Part shown: one piece after another, positions 1 to 15,806 of the stretch
How the letters are laid out: every line of letters begins with the position of its first letter
Numbering within the stretch: the first letter of the stretch is position 1
Virus record (IMG/VR): IMGVR_UViG_643348547_000009
From: a virus
Taxonomy: Duplodnaviria > Heunggongvirae > Uroviricota > Caudoviricetes
Direction: 5' to 3' (one strand)
DNA: 15,806 nucleotides
The notes under the pieces: model-generated
Told to the model about the DNA's origin: nothing
The model's input: only the letters and a program-made list of their open reading frames with translations
Database searches by the model: none
Translations under genes and position numbers: made by a program

Positions 1-1461
1 ATGAAAAAATTACTGCGTCTTTTTTTCCCGCTCTCGCTGCGGGTACGTTTTCTGTTGGCAACGGCAGCGGTAGTACTGGTGCTTTCGCTTGCCTACGGAA
101 TGGTCGCGCTGATCGGTTATAGCGTCAGTTTCGATAAAACTACGTTTCGGCTGTTACGTGGCGAGAGCAATCTGTTCTATACCCTTGCGAAGTGGGAAAA
201 CAATAAGTTGCATGTCGAGTTACCCGAAAATATCGACAAGCAAAGCCCCACCATGACGCTAATTTATGATGAGAACGGGCAGCTTTTATGGGCGCAACGT
301 GACGTGCCCTGGCTGATGAAGATGATCCAGCCTGACTGGCTGAAATCGAATGGTTTTCATGAAATTGAAGCGGATGTTAACGATACCAGCCTCTTGCTGA
401 GTGGAGATCATTCGATACAGCAACAGTTGCAGGAAGTGCGGGAAGATGATGACGACGCGGAGATGACCCACTCGGTAGCGGTAAACGTCTACCCGGCAAC
501 ATCGCGGATGCCAAAGTTAACCATTGTGGTGGTGGATACCATTCCGGTGGAGCTAAAAAGTTCCTATATGGTCTGGAGCTGGTTTATCTATGTGCTCTCA
601 GCCAATCTGCTGTTAGTGATCCCGCTGCTGTGGGTCGCCGCCTGGTGGAGTTTACGCCCCATCGAAGCCCTGGCAAAAGAAGTCCGCGAACTGGAAGAAC
701 ATAACCGCGAATTGCTCAATCCTGCCACAACGCGAGAACTGACCAGTCTGGTACGAAACCTGAACCGACTGTTAAAAAGTGAACGCGAACGTTACGACAA
801 ATATCGTACGACGCTCACCGACCTGACCCATAGTCTGAAAACGCCACTGGCGGTGCTGCAAAGTACGCTGCGTTCTCTGCGTAGTGAGAAGATGAGCGTC
901 AGTGATGCTGAGCCGGTAATGCTGGAGCAAATCAGCCGCATTTCACAGCAAATTGGCTACTACCTGCATCGTGCCAGTATGCGCGGCGGGACATTGCTTA
1001 GCCGCGAGCTGCATCCGGTCGCCCCACTGTTGGACAATCTCACCTCGGCGCTGAACAAAGTGTATCAACGCAAAGGGGTCAATATCTCTCTCGATATTTC
1101 GCCAGAGATCAGCTTTGTTGGTGAGCAGAACGATTTTGTCGAGGTGATGGGCAATGTGCTGGATAATGCCTGTAAATATTGCCTCGAGTTTGTCGAAATT
1201 TCTGCAAGGCAAACCGACGAGCATCTCTATATTGTGGTCGAGGATGATGGCCCCGGTATTCCATTAAGCAAGCGAGAGGTCATTTTCGACCGTGGTCAAC
1301 GGGTTGATACTTTACGCCCTGGGCAAGGTGTGGGGCTGGCGGTAGCCCGCGAAATCACCGAGCAATATGAGGGTAAAATCGTCGCCGGAGAGAGCATGCT
1401 GGGCGGTGCGCGGATGGAGGTGATTTTTGGTCGCCAGCATTCTGCGCCGAAAGATGAATAA
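1..1461 (+). CDS. phoQ: Sensor histidine kinase PhoQ of the PhoP/PhoQ two-component system, complete 486 aa
   Basis: ATG at 1, TAA at 1459-1461. Two hydrophobic TM segments flank a periplasmic domain with the acidic cluster EDDDDAEM; H-box [11 protein letters not shown]; ATP-binding G-boxes DDGPGI and GQGVGLAV. Sequence matches E. coli PhoQ as I remember it. Confidence 0.97.
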
Positions 1462-5314: not shown

Positions 5315-5649
5315 CGTGGCGCACCTGTTTTACAAAGAATTTCCAGACGAGTCCTTTTACCGTCGGGAACGGGGGGGCCAACAATATCAAGCTCATTGCC
5401 GGAATAAGCCCCCGTGAGTACCCGTATCCGGCTGGATGCCGTAACATCCACACGAAAACGGATCCAGACTCTTACGGTTGCCTGTGCCGTTTCTGCACCT
5501 GCGGTCATGCGTTCCCGTCCGCTGATCCCTTTCACCTCCGCCCATACGGTGGCAACATCCTCCCATGTGCTTTTCATTGCACCGGAAGGGAGGCGGGAAA
5601 GTTTCGCGCTCATGATGACAATGCGATCCCTCATGCTCCCCGCTCTCAT
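5311..5649 (-). CDS. Phage head closure / head-tail joining protein (112 aa)
   Basis: Size, position between portal and connector, and resemblance to the head closure protein family; ATGA overlap with the portal stop. Confidence 0.68.
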   Translation of the reverse strand: MRAGSMRDRIVIMSAKLSRLPSGAMKSTWEDVATVWAEVKGISGRERMTAGAETAQATVRVWIRFRVDVTASSRIRVLTGAYSGNELDIVGPPVPDGKRTRLEILCKTGAPR

Positions 5650-6860
5650 GATTTGCCCTCTTTATCATCCTTTACTTCGATCTCCTGTTTCCAGGCCTGG
5701 CTGAACTCATCGCCACCATCACGCGGCGATAATCCCTCACGTTCGCGGGCTTCGTTCGGGCACATAACGCCGGACTTGATGCCGCGTTCATAGGTGGCAA
5801 AGCGTTCGCCAGGTGTGGCCCGTAACAGATCCGCGCTGTCAAACTCCACCTGATACCGGATACCAGGTACAGGCGAGGCCACCAGCAAAGCATTTTTTAT
5901 CTGCTGCTCAAAGTTCGCCAGCCACGGGCGCATCGTCATGGTGAGAAATGCGCGGCTTGCCTCGCTGAAATTGCTGTAGGTGCTGTTGCTGTATTCCTGC
6001 AGAAAAATCGGCGAGACGTTGAACATTCGGGCGATGTCTTCAATGGTGAAGCGACGGGAGGCCAGCCATTCAGCATCCTGGTTACTCATGCCAAGCTGCT
6101 GATAGCTCATACCCCCTTCAAGAATGGGCGTTTTTCCGGCGTTTCTGGCTCCTTTGTAGCGTTCCAGTGCGGCTAATGCCTGTTTGCCCTTCACGCCGTC
6201 CAGCCATTCGCCTGACGTGATAACCCCTGCTGCCATCATGCCATCACGCATCACGCTCGCGCCGTGGCGCTGTTGGGCCAGCCCAAGCCCCAGCGATTCG
6301 CGGCAGATGGTCACAGGTGAGCGCCCCATAAAGCCGTCATCCGTGGAGTAACGAAGGTGGAGAACCTCCCACGGTAAATAGTTGCGGGTGTTTCCGCTGT
6401 AAGCGTCAGTGATGCGGTAACGCCAGTTATGTTCCCCTGTCTGCTCAACATTCACCGACTGCGGCGGGTAAGGGTGCAAAGCCACTGGAAAACCATCACG
6501 CCCCCACTGAATCACCGCATAAGCATTACCGTTTAACAGGCAGTGGCGGACCATCATTCGCTTAAACTGATAGGGCGTCTGCCACGCGTTCGGGCGCTCG
6601 TTGAGGATATGATCGACCGGATGAGAATCAAGCCACTCGCGGGCCTCCTTCCCCTTCTCATTGCGTACCAGGTACAGGTAGCATGGCATAGTAGCCACCG
6701 CCTCAGAGATGACCGTGACGGCGTTCATGACGGCGGGGAGTGATTCCGCTGTCCCCGATGATACGTACTCACCCGCCCCCGTGTTCGATGTGCCAGCCAG
6801 CGCCATAAATTCATCCAGCGTCATGCTGCGATGCTCTTGTTTTCGTCTGAAAGGCCACAT
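5646..6860 (-). CDS. Phage portal protein, HK97 family (404 aa)
   Basis: About 400 aa protein adjacent to the prohead protease with an acidic C-terminal tail; GGGGG Shine-Dalgarno about 6 nt upstream of the ATG at 6860. Confidence 0.88.
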   Translation of the reverse strand: MWPFRRKQEHRSMTLDEFMALAGTSNTGAGEYVSSGTAESLPAVMNAVTVISEAVATMPCYLYLVRNEKGKEAREWLDSHPVDHILNERPNAWQTPYQFKRMMVRHCLLNGNAYAVIQWGRDGFPVALHPYPPQSVNVEQTGEHNWRYRITDAYSGNTRNYLPWEVLHLRYSTDDGFMGRSPVTICRESLGLGLAQQRHGASVMRDGMMAAGVITSGEWLDGVKGKQALAALERYKGARNAGKTPILEGGMSYQQLGMSNQDAEWLASRRFTIEDIARMFNVSPIFLQEYSNSTYSNFSEASRAFLTMTMRPWLANFEQQIKNALLVASPVPGIRYQVEFDSADLLRATPGERFATYERGIKSGVMCPNEAREREGLSPRDGGDEFSQAWKQEIEVKDDKEGKS

Positions 6861-6861
6861 A

Positions 6862-7437
6862 TCACACCCCCGCTAAATCCGCCCACCAGCGGCGATTATC
6901 CGCGCGTGGCATTTTTTCGGGGTGCTGCTCATACAGGGAACGGCGGGCCAGATCCACGCCGGAATCAGGGTAAGCCGGTACGGATGTAACGGTAATTTCG
7001 TACAGTTCCGCCACCAGCACGGTGCGCACGCATGGATCTGTTGTGGTATCCCATACATCCTTACGGGAACGAAAGCCAAAGCTCATCCCCGAGATATCAC
7101 CACGCTTAACCAGTTCGATAACGTCCCGCCCTGTACTGGTATCCGGTGGGGTCAGTTCAAAGCGTAACCCTGTTTCATCCTCTTCCAGTTTCAGCGTACC
7201 GGAACGGGTACGCCCCAGTAACATGCTGTGGTCGTGCTCATACAGGCCGCGAACGTCATTACCCGCCGCCAGCCACTCACTGAACGCCCCCCGCTGGAAT
7301 TTTTCGTAAAACTCACCCCATAGCAGATCAGAAAGGTTATTCCAGCGAACAACGTAACCCGTCAGCGTACTGGCTCCGCTGGTGGTGATTTCTGATGACC
7401 GGATTTCCATGCTCTTTTTCATATTTTTTTCACCCAT
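6862..7437 (-). CDS. HK97-family prohead protease (191 aa; start may instead be the ATG at 7422)
   Basis: Conserved protease-family segments LYEHDHS, GRTRSGTL and GMSFGF. The ATG at 7437 has no good Shine-Dalgarno; the in-frame ATG at 7422 has GGTGA about 9 nt upstream. Confidence 0.85.
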   Translation of the reverse strand: MGEKNMKKSMEIRSSEITTSGASTLTGYVVRWNNLSDLLWGEFYEKFQRGAFSEWLAAGNDVRGLYEHDHSMLLGRTRSGTLKLEEDETGLRFELTPPDTSTGRDVIELVKRGDISGMSFGFRSRKDVWDTTTDPCVRTVLVAELYEITVTSVPAYPDSGVDLARRSLYEQHPEKMPRADNRRWWADLAGV

Positions 7438-7472: not shown

Positions 7473-8645
7473 TTAACCGCCGTTTTTCATCTCGAGGACT
7501 TTTATCGCGCGGGAGTCAACAACCCCGCCGCCGATGTATTTGTCCGTGTGTACCTTGTAGAAACCCGGCTCTGTAATGTTGTCCGGTCGGGTACGAATAC
7601 CCGTTTCATGGTCAACGATGAAATAACCGCGCTTAAAGTCACCGACAGCCAGCGGCGTTTTGCCTTTGCCGATGTCCGGCATACTTTCCAGGTAATAAAC
7701 AGGACGGCCCAGCAATGTGTCAGGTGCGCCCTCTTTGAGGCTGTCACGCCATACGTAATCACCGCTCTGGTTTTTCAGCTTCTGCAATGCTGCCGCTGTG
7801 CTCGAGTTCATCACCCATACGGCGTTCTTACGGTATTTCGCTTTCAGCTTGTAGAGGATGTCGATCAGTTCGTCCGCTGTAATGGCGGCTTCGGCTGCTG
7901 CTACCATTTTTTCAATGGTGCCAAAGGCGCGGGTTTTGTCGTTGGTTAGATCTCGGTTGTAACTCAGGAAACCTTTCGGCTTGCCAGTACCATTACCATT
8001 TACAAAATCATCTTCTTCGGTCGTGGCGAACGTATCGGCGATTTCAGACGATAACCAGCCCAGTACGTCCACCTCTGAAAAATCCAGAATTTCCTGTGTG
8101 GTTTTCGGGTAGGCATAGATCGGGTTAAGTTTGATGCTTACGCGCTCAACTTTCGGGGTGTTGGTTTCGTTACGCTTGCTGCCCTCGGTTCCATAATTTA
8201 CAGCCGCGCCACCTGTGGAAACCAGTTTCTGATATTCGTTTGATTTCGCCGTTTTCACGGTCGCAATCATTCGCATGACGCTTTCATCACTCAGTAACCG
8301 CATGACCTCGCGATCAAGCTCAGGGATAACGGTATAGCCACCGTCCTTGCCGCTGTTGCTAGTGGTGGATAATGAGCGAACGTCACCCGTTACGATGTAA
8401 TTGCGAAGTTCTGCGGGGTCAGTGGTCTGGCTGGCTTTACCTGGCTTGCTGCGCTCTTCGTCTGCAATGGCTTCAAGGCGGGAAATGTCTTTATCGAGGG
8501 ATTCAGCTTTAGCGCGTAATTCGTCAAATTTTGCGCCCTCAGCATCGTTAAGACTGCGGTTTTCTTTTTCCGCGTTCTCCAGCATGTCGCGCATCTGATT
8601 TTTAATGGCGGTTTTCTGCTGGCGTAATTCGATTATTCTCGGCAT
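7473..8645 (-). CDS. Major capsid protein, HK97 fold (390 aa)
   Basis: N-terminal coiled-coil scaffold-like delta domain (ELRQQKTAIKNQMRDMLENAEKE...), about 390 aa, adjacent to the prohead protease; ATG at 8645. Confidence 0.92.
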   Translation of the reverse strand: MPRIIELRQQKTAIKNQMRDMLENAEKENRSLNDAEGAKFDELRAKAESLDKDISRLEAIADEERSKPGKASQTTDPAELRNYIVTGDVRSLSTTSNSGKDGGYTVIPELDREVMRLLSDESVMRMIATVKTAKSNEYQKLVSTGGAAVNYGTEGSKRNETNTPKVERVSIKLNPIYAYPKTTQEILDFSEVDVLGWLSSEIADTFATTEEDDFVNGNGTGKPKGFLSYNRDLTNDKTRAFGTIEKMVAAAEAAITADELIDILYKLKAKYRKNAVWVMNSSTAAALQKLKNQSGDYVWRDSLKEGAPDTLLGRPVYYLESMPDIGKGKTPLAVGDFKRGYFIVDHETGIRTRPDNITEPGFYKVHTDKYIGGGVVDSRAIKVLEMKNGG

Positions 8646-8682
8646 AAAAAAAGTCCTGGGGTTAAGTAAGGAACTCCAGGAC
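8646..8682 (-). promoter_or_regulatory. Terminator-like hairpin plus T7 tract directly abutting the capsid start codon
   Basis: Minus strand reads GTCCTGG-(16 nt loop)-CCAGGAC-TTTTTTT-ATG. The only Shine-Dalgarno candidate (AGGA) is inside the 3' arm of the stem. Confidence 0.4.
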
Positions 8683-8859
8683 GCGGCAAAAACTCAACCG
8701 TTTTTCATAAGGAAATCAGCAATCGCACCGATCGTTTTCCCGCCTGGTAATGAATATTGGCGAGAACATTAACAGGCGGAAAAGTGGCCCCAGCGTCCTG
8801 GCACCACGGGCGAGAATAATCATGATTCAGTTCGGGTAAAATATGCCGATCCGGTCAGC

Positions 8860-8885
8860 GAACAACGTGGAACAACCACGAACAA
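8860..8885. repeat. Three GAACAA direct repeats at exact 10 bp spacing in the packaging-operon upstream region
   Basis: Read directly: cGAACAAcgtgGAACAAccacGAACAAataa; shares a 15-mer with 1586-1600. Confidence 0.6.
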
Positions 8886-8932: not shown

Positions 8933-9205
8933 TTATCTGTCCTGGTAATTTCGCCATATTTCATCACCAGCACCATCCATACCCATTTCGGCATAAGTGC
9001 GATCGACCGCCTTTTTCAGGTCTCCGTAATTATCCGGCGGCTCCGGTGGCCTCTGTGCCTTCCTGGAACATTCCAGCCGTCGCATCGTGATGTGATGCCG
9101 TTCCTTGTCTGTCTCCACCAGTTGCATGACTTCACCCCATCGCGCCGACGCTCTCCGGTAAAAGCCTTTCGCCTCCAGTTCTTCCGCTATGCGGTCATGT
9201 ACCAT
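8933..9205 (-). CDS. PerC-family transcriptional regulator-like protein (90 aa)
   Basis: N-terminal pattern MVHDRIAEELEAKGFYRRASARW matches my recollection of PerC-family proteins; strong Shine-Dalgarno (GAGGGGGG); last gene before the head module. Confidence 0.55.
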   Translation of the reverse strand: MVHDRIAEELEAKGFYRRASARWGEVMQLVETDKERHHITMRRLECSRKAQRPPEPPDNYGDLKKAVDRTYAEMGMDGAGDEIWRNYQDR

Positions 9206-9214
9206 CGCCCCCCC

Positions 9215-9625
9215 TCAGAACGGAATATCATCACCGTAAGGGTCATCGCCTCCCGCTGGTGGCTGATTACCCTGTGTGCCTGTGGTCTTGCGTCGGCTCC
9301 CACCAGGTCGCGCCGTTCTGGCACTGATTACGCTGTCTGCAATAACCTGCCAGCCCTGCCGCGTTTCGCCGTTCTGGCCTGTCCACTGGCTTACCTGCAT
9401 GTTACCCGCCACGCTCACCAGCTCGCCTTTGTGGTGTTTTGCCAGTGCGTCGGCCTGTCTGCCAAACGCCAGGACGGATAACCACATCGTCGCCTGTCCG
9501 TCATCTGCCTGATTGCACGGCAGGGGGACCGCCATGCTTGCCATAGCCATTTGTGTGCCCTTGCTGGTGGTCTTTAACTGCGGGTCAGCCACCAGCCGCC
9601 CGTAAGCGGCTATCTGTGCTGTCAT
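9215..9625 (-). CDS. ssb: Single-stranded DNA-binding protein (136 aa)
   Basis: OB-fold-like N-terminal region alignable with E. coli SSB, a Gly/Pro/Gln-rich linker, and the acidic C-terminal tip DDIPF. Confidence 0.8.
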   Translation of the reverse strand: MTAQIAAYGRLVADPQLKTTSKGTQMAMASMAVPLPCNQADDGQATMWLSVLAFGRQADALAKHHKGELVSVAGNMQVSQWTGQNGETRQGWQVIADSVISARTARPGGSRRKTTGTQGNQPPAGGDDPYGDDIPF

Positions 9626-10167: not shown

Positions 10168-11916
10168 TTATAAAAACGCGTCGCAATCGTCTGTTGTTAT
10201 TGCGTTAGTCTGCGTTACTCCCTTAACTTTCCGCGTAATATATTCATGTCCGTAAACTTTCGCGGCTGGCTTCATAGCCTTGCCAAAGTCATTTACGTTT
10301 AGCGGTTTGCTCCTGCCTGCGTATGCCATAAACGCCAGATAGACGCGGTAAAGGCTGTTTCTGGTCGTGTACTTCACTGAATCGCCACCGCCACCCATCA
10401 TCAGGCCGCGCGCTTCCTCCAGAAAATTCAGGAACTGGCAAAACTCAATAACCGGATCCGTCTGTTGCTTTATTGCCAGTGCTTCATCACCGTCACGCTG
10501 TTCCAGTAGTAAAGCCCGTGCCTTCTCAGGGTCGGTAAAGTTCGCCAGCAAGCGGCGGATAATGACAGGGATTTCAGCCGCGATCTTTTCCGGTAGCTCC
10601 CTGTCTTTTTCTGCCTCGCTTACGATATTGTCGAAGCGGAAAATAACCCGACGACGTGACACGCCTCCGGCCCGTTCGGTGAATATCATCGGGTTGTTAT
10701 TGGTCGCCAGCACCACCGCCCTGATTACCGTAGTGAAACGCTTTTCATATTTCGGGTTGATTTCCACGGGGTCGCCGCCCGTGATTTTCTTGATGCCCGT
10801 GCCTTCGCCTGTATATTTCGGCTGGTCTGCCAGGACGATAAGACGACTCCCGACAACCTGCGCACGCCCACCAGCATCATCAAGCGATGTCATTTCCGCG
10901 CTTACCGTGTTTTGTTTCCCCGCTAAAAGGCTGGCGATGTGGGTGAATGTACTTTTGCCGCTCCCGCCGTCTCCGGTGGCCTCAATAAACATCTGCCAGT
11001 CGTACCGGTTCGCCATAATCATGTACAGCGCGGCACATATACGCATCATCTTGCGCGAGTCTTTTCCGGCTGCGTGCTCAAGCCATTTATGAAAGTTTGG
11101 CGCGTTATCGCGGATGTTCTCCCCTGGTGCTGGTGGCGTGTACTCAATGCCGTTGTTCGTGGTGATCCAGTTCTCCGGCGTGTGCGGGGAAAATTCCCCC
11201 GTTTTCAGGTCAAGCGCACCATTGGCGAACGGCAGCAAATCGCCGGACGGCTCGCCCATTGGTTCGGCAATAACTTTTAACGCTTCCACGGCGTTATTGA
11301 TTACGCGCTTGCTGAAAGTGGCCCTGTGCTCTGAATAGATCGCCACCATTTCGCGGCTAAGTTCCATTGTGCTGACCGGACACCATACCCCGCCGCGCCA
11401 TACGTGAACGATTTCACTTTCCGGATGCACACAAACGCCATCAAATCGACCAGCAAGCATCTGTGCGCGCTCACTGTCTGCCATTTGTGCCAGTTGCGTA
11501 TTTTTCTGCTCCGGCATGGTAAGCCCTGCGGCAATATTTTCACGCTCAGCATTCAGATAGCGCCGCCAGTTTTCACACTTCTGGACGTGCATTCCTTCGG
11601 GGTAAAAATTTGCGTCCTGAATATCTGCCGCCGCCAGCTTCTGACCAATCTTTTTGGTCTCCACCAAATCCAGTTCTCCGGCCTGGTACAGCCTTACGCG
11701 TTTTTTTCCATCCGGAACAATTTTCAGTGCATCAAGTTCGGCAAGCTGATTTGGCCCAAGCCACACAGGCGGCACATTATCGCCGGATGCGGGGCCATCC
11801 TGCTCCTGCCATTGTTTCGCGTGCGACCAGGCATCACTACCCGCGAAAATAATTACCTCTGTGTCTTTGTGTTTTATTCCGCGTGGCTGTTTTTTTACGT
11901 TCGGTGCCAGTTTCAT
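10168..11916 (-). CDS. Phage/plasmid primase-helicase, P4 family (582 aa)
   Basis: Walker A motif GDGGSGKST in the C-terminal NTPase domain and a primase-like N-terminal half; ATG at 11916 with an AGGGG Shine-Dalgarno; followed by the iteron region. Confidence 0.88.
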   Translation of the reverse strand: MKLAPNVKKQPRGIKHKDTEVIIFAGSDAWSHAKQWQEQDGPASGDNVPPVWLGPNQLAELDALKIVPDGKKRVRLYQAGELDLVETKKIGQKLAAADIQDANFYPEGMHVQKCENWRRYLNAERENIAAGLTMPEQKNTQLAQMADSERAQMLAGRFDGVCVHPESEIVHVWRGGVWCPVSTMELSREMVAIYSEHRATFSKRVINNAVEALKVIAEPMGEPSGDLLPFANGALDLKTGEFSPHTPENWITTNNGIEYTPPAPGENIRDNAPNFHKWLEHAAGKDSRKMMRICAALYMIMANRYDWQMFIEATGDGGSGKSTFTHIASLLAGKQNTVSAEMTSLDDAGGRAQVVGSRLIVLADQPKYTGEGTGIKKITGGDPVEINPKYEKRFTTVIRAVVLATNNNPMIFTERAGGVSRRRVIFRFDNIVSEAEKDRELPEKIAAEIPVIIRRLLANFTDPEKARALLLEQRDGDEALAIKQQTDPVIEFCQFLNFLEEARGLMMGGGGDSVKYTTRNSLYRVYLAFMAYAGRSKPLNVNDFGKAMKPAAKVYGHEYITRKVKGVTQTNAITTDDCDAFL

Positions 11917-12445: not shown

Positions 12446-12902
12446 GACTCCCCCCCTGGCGAATACGGGCGACAAAAATAAGATGTGCGTGCGGCAGCTG
12501 TGCACGTGCTTCGCGCTCAGTGGCAGCGGTAACGGTGAATATTGCAATACTGTCTGTCAGGCACTGCATAAAGCGCCAGACAAAATAAGGGCGTGCGAAT
12601 ACAGCCATGTGAAAGGCTCCCAGATGAATTTTAAGGAGTCTCGCTACTACGCTGCTAAACATGGTGGCGAGACGTAACAGGGTTAGCAGACTGGTCATCT
12701 GGAAACCAGCGAGCACAAAGGCTCCCCCGTTACGCCCCGCCATAATGCGGGTATGGGTAGGTTTACGGACACAAAAAAACCGCTTATCGGATGTGGGCGG
12801 CTGTCCGCCAGATGTATTCAGGCTGCTAAACCCGGTCGCCATGTGGGCGACGGGGGAAGCATACAGCCCCGTGATAATTTTTTGCAAGCGGTTTTTACGC
12901 AT
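12438..12902 (-). CDS. Icd-like (P4 cell-division-inhibitor family) domain protein, copy 1; full ORF is 154 aa, and an internal start at 12608 would give 56 aa
   Basis: C-terminal WRF...ATEREARAQ...FVARIRQGGSHA is paralogous to the C-terminus of copy 2. The ATG at 12902 has an AGGGG Shine-Dalgarno and overlaps the copy 2 stop; the ATG at 12608 has a GGGAG Shine-Dalgarno. Confidence 0.45.
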   Translation of the reverse strand: MRKNRLQKIITGLYASPVAHMATGFSSLNTSGGQPPTSDKRFFCVRKPTHTRIMAGRNGGAFVLAGFQMTSLLTLLRLATMFSSVVARLLKIHLGAFHMAVFARPYFVWRFMQCLTDSIAIFTVTAATEREARAQLPHAHLIFVARIRQGGSHA

Positions 12903-14396: not shown

Positions 14397-14576
14397 GCTA
14401 TTTAAAGAGTGATTCGCTAGTGTATAAAAAACCAGTAACACATTAAAAATCAGCTACTTATAAATCCGTACACTTTTTCGCCTCTTGTTCGTAGTTGTTC
14501 CGCATTGTTGCTCATTGTTGCACGTTGTATCTGTTCGCATATCCAGTATGCGCATACTGAAAAAACACGAAAAAAA

Positions 14577-15806
14577 TTATTTTCTTCTGGCTACTGGTAG
14601 CGTGGTTACGTTTTCATGTGTTCCCGCCAGTATCCCTAACCGCTCCGTCCACATATCCAGCGCATTGCGTTTAGCATCCAGATAACGGGAATGATTATAA
14701 ACTCGCTGCATTCCTGGCATCTGGTGGCCTGTAAGCTGCTCCACGACGTGAGGATCCACGCCTAAATCGCTCAGCATCGTTGTAAAGGTGCGCCGGATGT
14801 CATGTAGTGACCAGTGAGGGTGATTTAGCCTCCTGTGCGCTAATCTGCCGTACTGCGACACGCTTGTTTCCTGTTTCACTTCCCCCAGCAATAAGCCCGT
14901 GTGCCTGTTCTGCTCCACCAGCTGCGTGACGAACGGCAGTATTGCTTCCGGTATGGGCCGGAATATTGCCACCTTCGTTTTGCTGTGTTCTTTCGGCACG
15001 GTCCAGAGCATTTCGGTAAAATCCCACTCGCTGATCTCCGATAACCTCAGTTCTACCGTCCGGCATCCGAACACAATCAGGAGGCGGATTAACGCGATGT
15101 AGTAGGGGGAGAATATTTTTTTGTCCAGTGCCTGCAATAATTCGCCCAGTTCTTTGGTGCTTAAGACACGCTCGCTTATATCCGGTTTTTTCCCAACGTC
15201 CGCCACACTCATATCATCAAGAACGTTGCTGATTGCATAGCGCCGCCTCCGGCAGAACTTAAGCGCCTGTTTGCACGTCTGTAGCAAGAATCCGGCAGTA
15301 ACAGGCGTTCGCTTTGCCACCTGGTCAAAACAGGCCAGCCAGTGCCGTAGCTCGCATTTATCCAGCGGCATAGCACCAATGTGCTGTATTACGTGATTAT
15401 TAAGGCGCTTTTTCAGGGCGGCATAATCCACGCGGTTTTCCTTTGCGTACGACTCAAGCCAGTAGGTGAGCGCATCGCCAACCGTTACCGGCTTTAACGC
15501 TTCCTGTACGGTGTAATTAAGCTCATGACGTGGATTTTTCCCCTCTGCCAGCCATGCGCGACACTGGGCGGCTTTTTCCCTGGCTGATTTCAGGCTCAGA
15601 TCAGGATAATTTCCCAGCTTAATGCGTTCCGGTGGTGCCCCCCTTCCCGTTCCGGCCCTGTAAGTGAAATACCAGGTTAAAAGGCCACTGGTTGAATGCC
15701 TGACGCTCAGGTTTCCACCGTCATTAAGAAAGGCTGTTTTTTGGGCGGGTGTGCCGTTGATTTTCCTCAGCTGTGTATCGCTCAGTTTGTTAAGTGCTCT
15801 GCTCAT
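14577..15806 (-). CDS. int: Site-specific tyrosine integrase, P4-type (409 aa)
   Basis: ATG is formed by the last three bases of the window. N-terminal arm-binding-like domain, and a C-terminal catalytic region (...HDIRRTFTT...YNHSRYLD) consistent with the tyrosine recombinase R/H/R/Y arrangement. Confidence 0.93.
   Translation of the reverse strand: MSRALNKLSDTQLRKINGTPAQKTAFLNDGGNLSVRHSTSGLLTWYFTYRAGTGRGAPPERIKLGNYPDLSLKSAREKAAQCRAWLAEGKNPRHELNYTVQEALKPVTVGDALTYWLESYAKENRVDYAALKKRLNNHVIQHIGAMPLDKCELRHWLACFDQVAKRTPVTAGFLLQTCKQALKFCRRRRYAISNVLDDMSVADVGKKPDISERVLSTKELGELLQALDKKIFSPYYIALIRLLIVFGCRTVELRLSEISEWDFTEMLWTVPKEHSKTKVAIFRPIPEAILPFVTQLVEQNRHTGLLLGEVKQETSVSQYGRLAHRRLNHPHWSLHDIRRTFTTMLSDLGVDPHVVEQLTGHQMPGMQRVYNHSRYLDAKRNALDMWTERLGILAGTHENVTTLPVARRK

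Follow-up and report, generated by a model that had tools for sequence, protein, structure and literature searches.

A three-stem leader RNA as a candidate cis switch of the capsid gene in phage-inducible chromosomal islands that form capsids

Phage-inducible chromosomal islands of the capsid-forming type (cf-PICIs) make their own capsids and borrow only the tails from helper phages. Their induction through AlpA has already been described (bioRxiv 10.1101/2025.02.11.637232). The searchable cf-PICI literature contains no account of how the packaging operon is switched on. This question is raised by the stretch of 15,806 nucleotides analysed here (IMG/VR virus record IMGVR_UViG_643348547_000009; the whole stretch is called the window), which is an EcCIEDL933-type cf-PICI inserted beside phoQ. 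A hairpin and a run of seven T residues stand directly before the start codon of its major capsid gene, and the sole candidate ribosome-binding site lies inside the stem. How, then, is the capsid made? The hairpin, here termed P3, is the final stem of a leader RNA of about 160 nt with three stems (P1-P2-P3), which is described neither in that literature nor in Rfam. From comparison of the sequences it is on balance probable that P3 and its U7 run form the expression-platform helix of a conserved structured 5' leader of the packaging operon and act as a cis switch of the capsid gene. The gate formed by P3 would probably provide on/off control of capsid production.

The hairpin before the capsid start codon and its leader

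Read on the minus strand, the region before the capsid gene runs ...gccgcGTCCTGG-AGTTCCTTACTTAACC-CCAGGAC-TTTTTTT-ATGCCGAGA. The initial annotation, made from the sequence alone, had described it as GTCCTGG-(16 nt)-CCAGGAC-T7-ATG at 8646-8682, and this is exact. The ATG at 8645-8643 is the capsid start: three related E. coli records carry the identical PGAP start, and alignments of capsid homologues (tblastn, 160 genes) start at residue 1 on an ATG, those of Pasteurellaceae loci at residue 3. In the structure predicted by RNAfold, (((((((.(((........))).))))))), a 7-bp helix is followed by a 1x1 internal loop and a further 3 bp, which close on a loop of 8 nt. The energy is -12.7 kcal/mol for the hairpin by itself and -13.9 kcal/mol with the U-run. 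The stem suits an intrinsic terminator, with 7 bp (5 G-C) plus 3 bp and U7 from the first base after the stem. As for the short loop of 3-8 nt expected of a compact terminator, 16 nt lie between the perfect arms, the 8-nt loop requires the 1x1 mismatch and the 3-bp inner helix, and a terminator scan left the window allele unflagged.

The sole Shine-Dalgarno candidate, AGGA (8657-8654), lies inside P3, and the Shine-Dalgarno window is completely paired in the minimum-energy fold of the window's leader. The initial annotation was right in naming this AGGA in the 3' arm; the spacer that it found missing is there, since 8 nt to the ATG is a normal distance. The U7 run could serve both as a terminator tail and as this spacer. 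As U7 follows directly on the stem, transcripts reaching the capsid gene must cross a terminator-like signal, and as AGGA is inside P3, ribosomes must open a stem of about -13 kcal/mol. Inspection of the final 12 nt before the ATG found no -10-like hexamer, and a leaderless mRNA, or a promoter within or downstream of the hairpin, was ruled out on this ground.

Taken alone, P3 is just modestly unusual. Its 71-nt context has z = -2.1 against shuffles, 7 of 200 of which fold equally well. The window holds one perfect 7-bp hairpin that has a loop of at most 20 nt and runs into at least 6 T in 7; 0.07 would be expected, and 6 of 100 dinucleotide shuffles contain at least one. The case for P3 therefore rests on conservation. 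The heptamer CCAGGAC, which contains the Dcm site CCWGG, is found seven times in the window against 1.3 expected (at 2483, 8653, 8676, 8795, 8939, 9469, and 10830), and three of the copies fall in P1 and P3.

For the comparison set, 160 loci that encode capsid homologues at 60-99% identity were drawn from genomes and viral contigs; alignment A1 holds 73 distinct leaders. The leader is present as one copy per island, immediately 5' of the capsid gene. Both P1 and P2 are true RNA helices. In A1, pairing stands at 99% over the 17 pairs that make up P1 and the P2 base; 13 of the 17 show compensatory changes, a result that none of 500 shuffles reached, and RNAalifold independently recovers the same pairs. 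P1 accounts for 9 of them (99.5% paired, compensatory changes at 5), and P2 for 8 basal pairs (98.3% paired, compensatory changes at all 8). The P2 basal stem is wholly different in sequence between lineages, and its pairing is always kept. P1 reads GUGGC-A-CUCA-GACG-UGAG-CC-GCCAC, nearly invariant, in the main clade, and GUGAC-A-CUCC-GRCG-GGAG-CC-GUCAC in the third clade. P1 is nearly invariant across genera, which suggests that something recognises it, and P2 varies greatly in its sequence, its length, and the way it branches. R1, a covariance model made from the leader alignment, finds one copy in the window and also matches further Xenorhabdus copies with A-U in place of G-C as the first P1 pair.

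In every P1-bearing clade, the Shine-Dalgarno region is covered by the 3' arm of a hairpin with an energy of -10 to -17 kcal/mol. No such occluding hairpin was found in the short-leader clades (many Xenorhabdus loci, Pasteurellaceae). The arms of P3 are specific to the clade: GUCCUGG/CCAGGAC in that of the window, GGUUUC/GAAACC in the main clade, CUGCAUG/CAUGCAG in Xenorhabdus/Photorhabdus, and CUGUA/UACAG in Gilliamella. The U-run (T7-T8) is present in every E. coli-clade leader seen and absent from the other clades; spacer and start codon read GAAACCACUCC-AUG in the main clade and GAAAACCUUC-AUG in the clade of 82% capsid identity. The terminator signal is thus not conserved across homologous leaders. 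Because all P1-bearing clades bury the ribosome site and the U-run is confined to the E. coli clade, occlusion of the ribosome site would be the conserved role of P3, and the terminator anatomy a lineage-specific addition in E. coli. The supposed need for read-through or antitermination draws on the perfect U7 after the stem, but the U-run is absent from all sister clades, so it could be at most an E. coli-clade addition.

Three loci of the comparison set, designated L003, L004, and L085, illustrate how P3 is retained. The L004 leader is just 72% identical overall, yet the arms and the T7-8 run are kept. In L004 and L085, the loop is an unrelated 18-nt sequence and the flanks have diverged, with arms and U-run unchanged. 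In L003, a CC-to-TT change converts a G-C pair and an A.C mismatch into G.U and A-U, which gives a continuous 11-pair stem with a loop of 8, and this allele was flagged by the terminator scan. P3 is here kept via G.U, which pairs only in RNA, and L003 is therefore evidence against a DNA operator.

Other terminator-like elements were noted in this leader family. Further leader types (L024, L055) have a separate hairpin with a U-run about 45-90 nt before the capsid ATG, away from the ribosome site. The Pantoea/Symbiopectobacterium leader contains the hairpin GCGGCGGUUA...UAACCGCUGC followed by ACUUUUUU, and in the Photorhabdus locus L079 a U7 follows P2. The family seems to have acquired leader terminators on more than one occasion. 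The E. coli-clade leader also has an additional segment of about 50 nt between P2 and P3 (8734-8685; window 8643-8812 compared with A1 columns 101-149), with two small hairpins and an A-run, AUGAAAAAC, complementary to the U-run. A search of viral contigs with the pattern GCGTCCTGG-N12-24-CAGGAC was discarded, as its matches were mostly due to chance.

A long-range pairing that excludes P3

The P1 apex CCAGGACGC, which includes the GACG loop, is the exact complement of GCGUCCUGG (8684-8676), a segment made up of the P3 5' arm and two more bases, and the two can form 9 bp in the window. The corresponding pairing joins AGACGUGA with UCACGUCU in the main clade and GACGGGA with UCCCGUC in the third clade. 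The P1 loop GACG always stands opposite an invariant CGUC. On A1 this long-range helix (8 pairs) is 96.2% paired, against 22-58% for slid controls. Its pair 17-152 is U-A, C-G, or G-C, one in each of three clades, and a directed search for more P1 variants returned these three types alone, each with the matching base on the P3 side. A fourth, unrelated leader, that of the CUGCAUG clade (Xenorhabdus/Photorhabdus), has a 5'-hairpin apex, CAUGUAGG, complementary to its own P3, CCUACAUG, over 8 bp.

The long-range helix and P3 exclude one another. Folding of transcript prefixes in three clades gave the long-range helix as the minimum-energy fold, by 0.3-4.9 kcal/mol, while just the 5' half of P3 exists. 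Once the 3' arm has been made, P1 with P3 is ahead by about 2-10 kcal/mol. This crossover is the signature of a metastable, co-transcriptional switch. An alternative pairing that frees the Shine-Dalgarno site is thus found in the 9-bp helix, in the pairing on A1, and in the prefix folds, with few independent changes. The initial annotation had seen in P3 a possible tight lock on capsid production until induction, and the occluding hairpin of all P1-bearing clades and the co-varying alternative pairing do fit a gate; the part of it that is conserved, however, is translational. That interpretation is, overall, partly supported.

Transcription would start at about 8807 from a weak, activator-dependent promoter, with the upstream TTGTTC repeats as candidate sites and AlpA as the candidate activator. 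P1 and P2 would fold first. In the ON state, the emerging GCGUCCUGG would invade P1 via the GACG loop and form the 9-bp helix; CCAGGAC-U7 would stay single-stranded, the terminator would be absent, AGGA would be free, and capsid could be made. In the OFF state, P1 would remain closed, or the RNA would relax to its equilibrium fold, and GUCCUGG would pair with CCAGGAC; polymerase would halt in the U-run, or the read-through mRNA would be translationally silent. Candidates for biasing the choice of fold are a P1-binding factor, the kinetics of folding, and RNA processing. A wider proposal, put forward tentatively and with rather less than even confidence, is that P1-P2-P3 represents an undescribed, widespread family of cis-regulatory RNAs in hundreds of Enterobacterales cf-PICIs. 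P1 might serve to sense polymerase itself or a factor of the island or host, its apex might act as a toehold anti-terminator or anti-sequestor that times capsid synthesis, and the output helix might have been rebuilt by each lineage as a translational gate or a terminator.

Promoter region, candidate regulators and the island

Most loci share an architecture which comprises, in transcription order, a TTTGTAAAT box, 3-4 direct repeats about 10 bp apart, a -10-like element, and the three-stem leader RNA. The -10-like element lies at a fixed distance from the leader and reads TATTCT in the window and TATCTT in the main clade. The spacing from the putative promoter of the window (Table 1) to P1 equals that of the conserved ATGTATATCTT element in the main clade, and the transcript would start at about 8807-8805. 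In L003, a sigma-70 promoter with 10 of 12 matches stops 6-7 nt before P1, precisely where homology with the window starts, and this supports a 5' end at P1. In that locus (L003 1894-2228; NZ_AP045172.1, E. coli), unrelated DNA replaces the entire stretch from the perC terminator to P1 and brings its own terminator-like hairpin together with the sigma-70 promoter; the phased repeats are gone. L003 would be a natural promoter swap that leaves the leader as sole control.

TTGTTC-like repeats number 11 in the window against 1.7 expected. Beside the three upstream of the putative promoter, phased copies occur at 14485-14520 (+; between int and alpA) and 1585-1610 (-; at the island end near phoQ), and main-clade islands have TGTTTAC-like repeats at the equivalent place upstream of the leader. 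This distribution would fit sites of a Xis-type protein, e.g., AlpA as both activator and excision factor. A simple scan of six full-length contigs for such repeats elsewhere gave no clear pattern. The map of the regulatory region comprises the phased repeats, a putative weak promoter, and, with the capsid ribosome site hidden in its final stem, the leader of about 160 nt.

The initial annotation had suggested checks for AlpA- or PerC-like dependence and for an effect of helper induction. Overexpression of alpA alone yields PICI capsids (bioRxiv 10.1101/2025.02.11.637232), and a helper-phage factor is therefore not required. By tblastn, PerC is encoded upstream of the leader in the clade of the window and in part of the E. 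coli-type clade of 81-82%, and in none of the other clades tested. It is therefore an accessory gene and was rejected as the cognate regulator; a literature search on PerC or late-gene control in PICIs found nothing usable. The island AlpA (62 aa, Pfam Phage_AlpA) matches a 73-aa AlpA-family chain, 8c3t, in a PDB search that left antiterminator chains unmatched at E<=10. The AlpA antiterminator of Pseudomonas aeruginosa has its DNA-reading residues at positions 128-142 (PMC9371919). Homology between the two was rejected on size and on the absence of similarity in the PDB search, and the shared name is coincidental. Neither PerC nor AlpA is thus supported as an antitermination agent. No Q-like domain was found among the 20 open reading frames scanned, and the element was not found to encode a cognate antiterminator of the Q or P. 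aeruginosa AlpA type.

Attenuation by a leader peptide (trp type) was rejected as well: the candidate, a 35-aa open reading frame at 8716-8823, starts upstream of the inferred transcript start, and its ATG is missing in L003 and L004. Rfam gave nothing relevant at E<=10 in the leader of the window or in one main-clade leader. The sole gathering-level match in the window is a C4 RNA of the P1/P7 C4 and P4 CI type. This antisense RNA was rejected as a regulator of the leader, with no complement of at least 8 nt in 8643-8810. The nearest 8-nt complements of the C4 RNA flank its own gene, one (12857-12850) a short way upstream and the other (12627-12620) a short way downstream; the arrangement is reminiscent of seqA/seqC in P4 and suggests RNA-based immunity or control of an early operon in this cf-PICI.

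A second hairpin lies just past the capsid stop codon, with UUUGGUGUUUU next. At the homologous position in most clades (L005-L164), a GC-rich hairpin with a short loop (about 3-7 nt) and a U-run follows the capsid stop; there, a free GGAG and the protease start come 15-25 nt later. Between its capsid and protease genes, the packaging operon thus has an internal terminator-like signal. The initial annotation had given the capsid and protease genes one shared layout. The resemblance is superficial, as the protease hairpin is a canonical short-loop stem followed by a free Shine-Dalgarno site in most clades. By its sequence it would be an inter-cistronic terminator or attenuator, or an element stabilising the mRNA 3' end, and not a second P3. 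The protease of the window may start at ATG 7422 instead of 7437, because its MKKSMEIR aligns with MKTIDFEIR of the homologues; PGAP picks the upstream ATG in relatives.

The minus strand carries every island gene (Pfam/Rfam scans; Table 1). The capsid leader is present in 360 of 5426 complete E. coli genomes, EDL933 (at 1687938-1688122) among them, and is annotated in none; of the 360, 351 have it at 95-100% identity. As for the exact P1 25-mer, more than 120 IMG/VR contigs, mostly of about 15 kb, carry it in a single copy. The window's leader had no match in the phage collection, and the main-clade leader matched just three records there, the best being a 16.5-kb cf-PICI-like record. LR881103.1, 'Escherichia phage vB_KppS-Ant' (16.5 kb, induced prophage), has the main-clade leader directly upstream of its capsid gene and looks like a cf-PICI deposited under a phage name. 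Between perC and the leader, O157:H7-type islands (L001 1838-2260, e.g., NZ_CP032797.1) have about 350 bp of additional DNA, with a 74-aa hypothetical open reading frame and a second copy of the perC terminator hairpin; the RefSeq annotation also shows a frameshifted 'trigger factor' fragment in it.

Table 1. Positions of leader elements, signals and genes in the window
Feature	Position	Strand	Remarks
Putative late promoter TTTACC (8840-8835), 16 nt, TATTCT (8818-8813)	8813-8841	-	predicted; below promoter-scan threshold
Three TTGTTC direct repeats, 10-bp spacing	8860-8885	-	upstream of the putative promoter; candidate activator sites (e.g., AlpA, Xis-type)
P1 stem-loop GUGGU-G-CCAG-GACG-CUGG-G-GCCAC	8807-8784	-	at inferred transcript 5' end
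P1 apex CCAGGACGC	8801-8793	-	
P2 long hairpin	8783-8735	-	core CCGCCUG (8779-8773) paired with CAGGCGG (8746-8740)
P3 5' arm GTCCTGG	8682-8676	-	within GCGTCCTGG (8684-8676), partner of P1 apex; CGTC columns invariant in A1
P3 loop region, 16 nt	8675-8660	-	RNAfold: 1x1 internal loop, 3-bp helix GUU/AAC, 8-nt loop
P3 3' arm CCAGGAC	8659-8653	-	holds AGGA
U7 run	8652-8646	-	directly between stem and start codon
Major capsid gene (HK97 type), 390 aa	7473-8645	-	packaging operon gene 1; Pfam Phage_capsid 2.7e-71
Terminator-like hairpin AAAGGGGCU-AAAA-AGCCCCUUU, then GGUGUUUU	7467-7446	-	terminator scan; 9-bp stem, 4-nt loop
Prohead protease	6862-7437	-	packaging operon
Portal	5646-6860	-	packaging operon
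Head completion protein, connector, HNH endonuclease, TerS, TerL		-	remaining packaging operon genes
PerC	8933-9205	-	
SSB-like gene	9215-9625	-	
D5-type primase	10168-11916	-	
C4-type antisense RNA	12660-12747	-	Rfam, 72.7 bits
AlpA, 62 aa	14014-14202	-	Pfam Phage_AlpA
Integrase	14577-15806	-	
phoQ	1-1461		adjoins island

Rival readings and known systems

Several points weigh against a switch. At equilibrium, the nested model favours P1 with P3 by about 9-10 kcal/mol, with P(P3) of ~1, so that the ON state calls for a kinetic effect, a factor, or a pseudoknot in which the outer stem of P1 is preserved. The long-range covariation amounts to only three lineage-level events, and the pairing was derived from sequences also used as the test. 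P3 of the window's clade is not column-homologous to that of the main clade, and covariation inside P3 is weak; within the main-clade P3 the test is uninformative because the arms are almost invariant. The clade-specific U-run may be a mere U-rich spacer or a translation enhancer. The promoter and start site are predictions, and the window promoter fails a consensus scan. Finally, a DNA palindrome that serves as the binding site of a dimeric protein could also show the symmetric changes seen in P1, a reading disfavoured by the asymmetric bulge and the G.U pairs.

The equilibrium fold is also what would be expected if P3 were a plain constitutive structure, i.e., a leaky terminator or attenuator, or a stability element, that gives a fixed low read-through or insulation, with no switch and a functionless complementarity between P1 and P3. 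The operon can accommodate internal terminators, as is shown by the second terminator-like hairpin past the capsid gene, and the variable accessory-gene slot upstream would profit from insulation (bioRxiv 10.1101/2025.02.11.637232). This is nevertheless rather unlikely: capsid is needed in the largest amount, yet its sole Shine-Dalgarno candidate is buried; in three clades, changes in the P1 apex are matched by changes in the P3 5' half, and the same design recurs in a fourth leader type; and the hairpin is present in sister clades without any U-run. Terminator-like hairpins on both sides of the capsid gene might instead point to processive antitermination, with P1-P2 as a polymerase-modifying RNA like HK022 put and P3 as a true terminator that stops unmodified polymerases only, modified ones reading through P3-U7, the post-capsid hairpin, and later signals. 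Two stem-loops 0-2 nt apart do start at the inferred +1, as putL does near PL, and P1 is almost invariant across genera. The idea is improbable, as R1 has no match in the HK022 genome (locus L426) at E<=1 and Rfam gave none; the wide variation of P2 would be unexpected for a polymerase-binding surface, and the complementarity of P1 and P3 and the burial of the ribosome site in clades without a U-run would be left unexplained.

The standard 3' module of Hfq-dependent small RNAs consists of a hairpin and at least 7 U after it. The leader ended at U7 might therefore be the product itself, a small RNA of about 160 nt whose hairpin and poly-U tail could bind Hfq, with capsid made via read-through only. 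The high identity of this unannotated leader among carrier E. coli genomes speaks for such a product, which is very improbable given that the U-run is restricted to the E. coli clade, that the leader is far more widespread, and that a target or seed region was not identified; a literature search for small RNAs that map to the island of O157 strains (CP-933C/SpLE2) found nothing usable. Still less credible is an inverted repeat that serves as DNA operator of a dimeric regulator, with CCAGGAC half-sites at 8801-8795, 8682-8676, and 8659-8653. It would account for three copies within 150 bp, for the excess of the heptamer in the window, and for conserved arms around a variable loop. The site, however, lies 7 nt from the start codon within the transcribed leader, and a promoter cannot fit downstream; the stem of L003 is preserved in RNA alone; UCACGUC, which is complementary to P1 in the main clade, differs from the P3 arms there, hence no common half-site exists; and the adjacent P2 shows heavy RNA-type covariation. 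A leader switch with P3 as its output helix is thus the reading retained here, at the modest confidence given above.

The leader gate offers an explanation for how leaky capsid synthesis could be prevented. If the switch is true, the leader would represent a new leader-RNA family specific to phage satellites, and a compact terminator/ribosome-site gate for possible use in engineered PICI delivery vectors. With its co-varying alternative pairing, it is a new case of a familiar type of regulator.

Short leaders that end in an intrinsic terminator directly before the first late or lysis gene, and that need read-through, are known from lambda pR'-6S RNA-tR' with Q and from P. aeruginosa AlpA with tB upstream of alpB (PMC7969949, PMC9371919). 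In both, the terminator sits immediately before the first gene, as P3-U7 does before capsid. The island differs in that no Q-like or P. aeruginosa AlpA-like protein was found in it, its own AlpA being a 62-aa Xis-type winged-helix protein; its leader has no identified binding element or -10-like pause signal, and the sister clades have no U-run. HK022 putL is made up of two stem-loops that together span ~70 nt, and it is located just downstream of PL (PMC9378689). The likeness is one of layout alone, two adjacent stem-loops right after the promoter of an operon with internal terminators, and the leader differs in the missing R1 match and in a P2 that is not conserved. Translational control via alternative mRNA structures is found in phage Mu mom/Com and lambda cIII. 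There, too, a phage gene has its ribosome-binding site locked in a stem that must open, and an upstream element sets the fold; in the island, an activator akin to Com or RNase III has not been identified.

Terminator/antiterminator and sequestor/anti-sequestor leaders, the expression platforms of riboswitches and attenuators, likewise use two exclusive helices which set the formation of a hairpin with U-run and the release of the Shine-Dalgarno site. As in riboswitch classes, the platform of related leaders is either purely translational, as in the main clade, or of terminator type, as in the E. coli clade. Unlike these systems, the leader has no leader peptide, no Rfam match, and, because P2 is too variable, no recognisable ligand-binding domain. 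In the leader, competition comes from the apical loop and the upper stem of the hairpin at the extreme 5' terminus.

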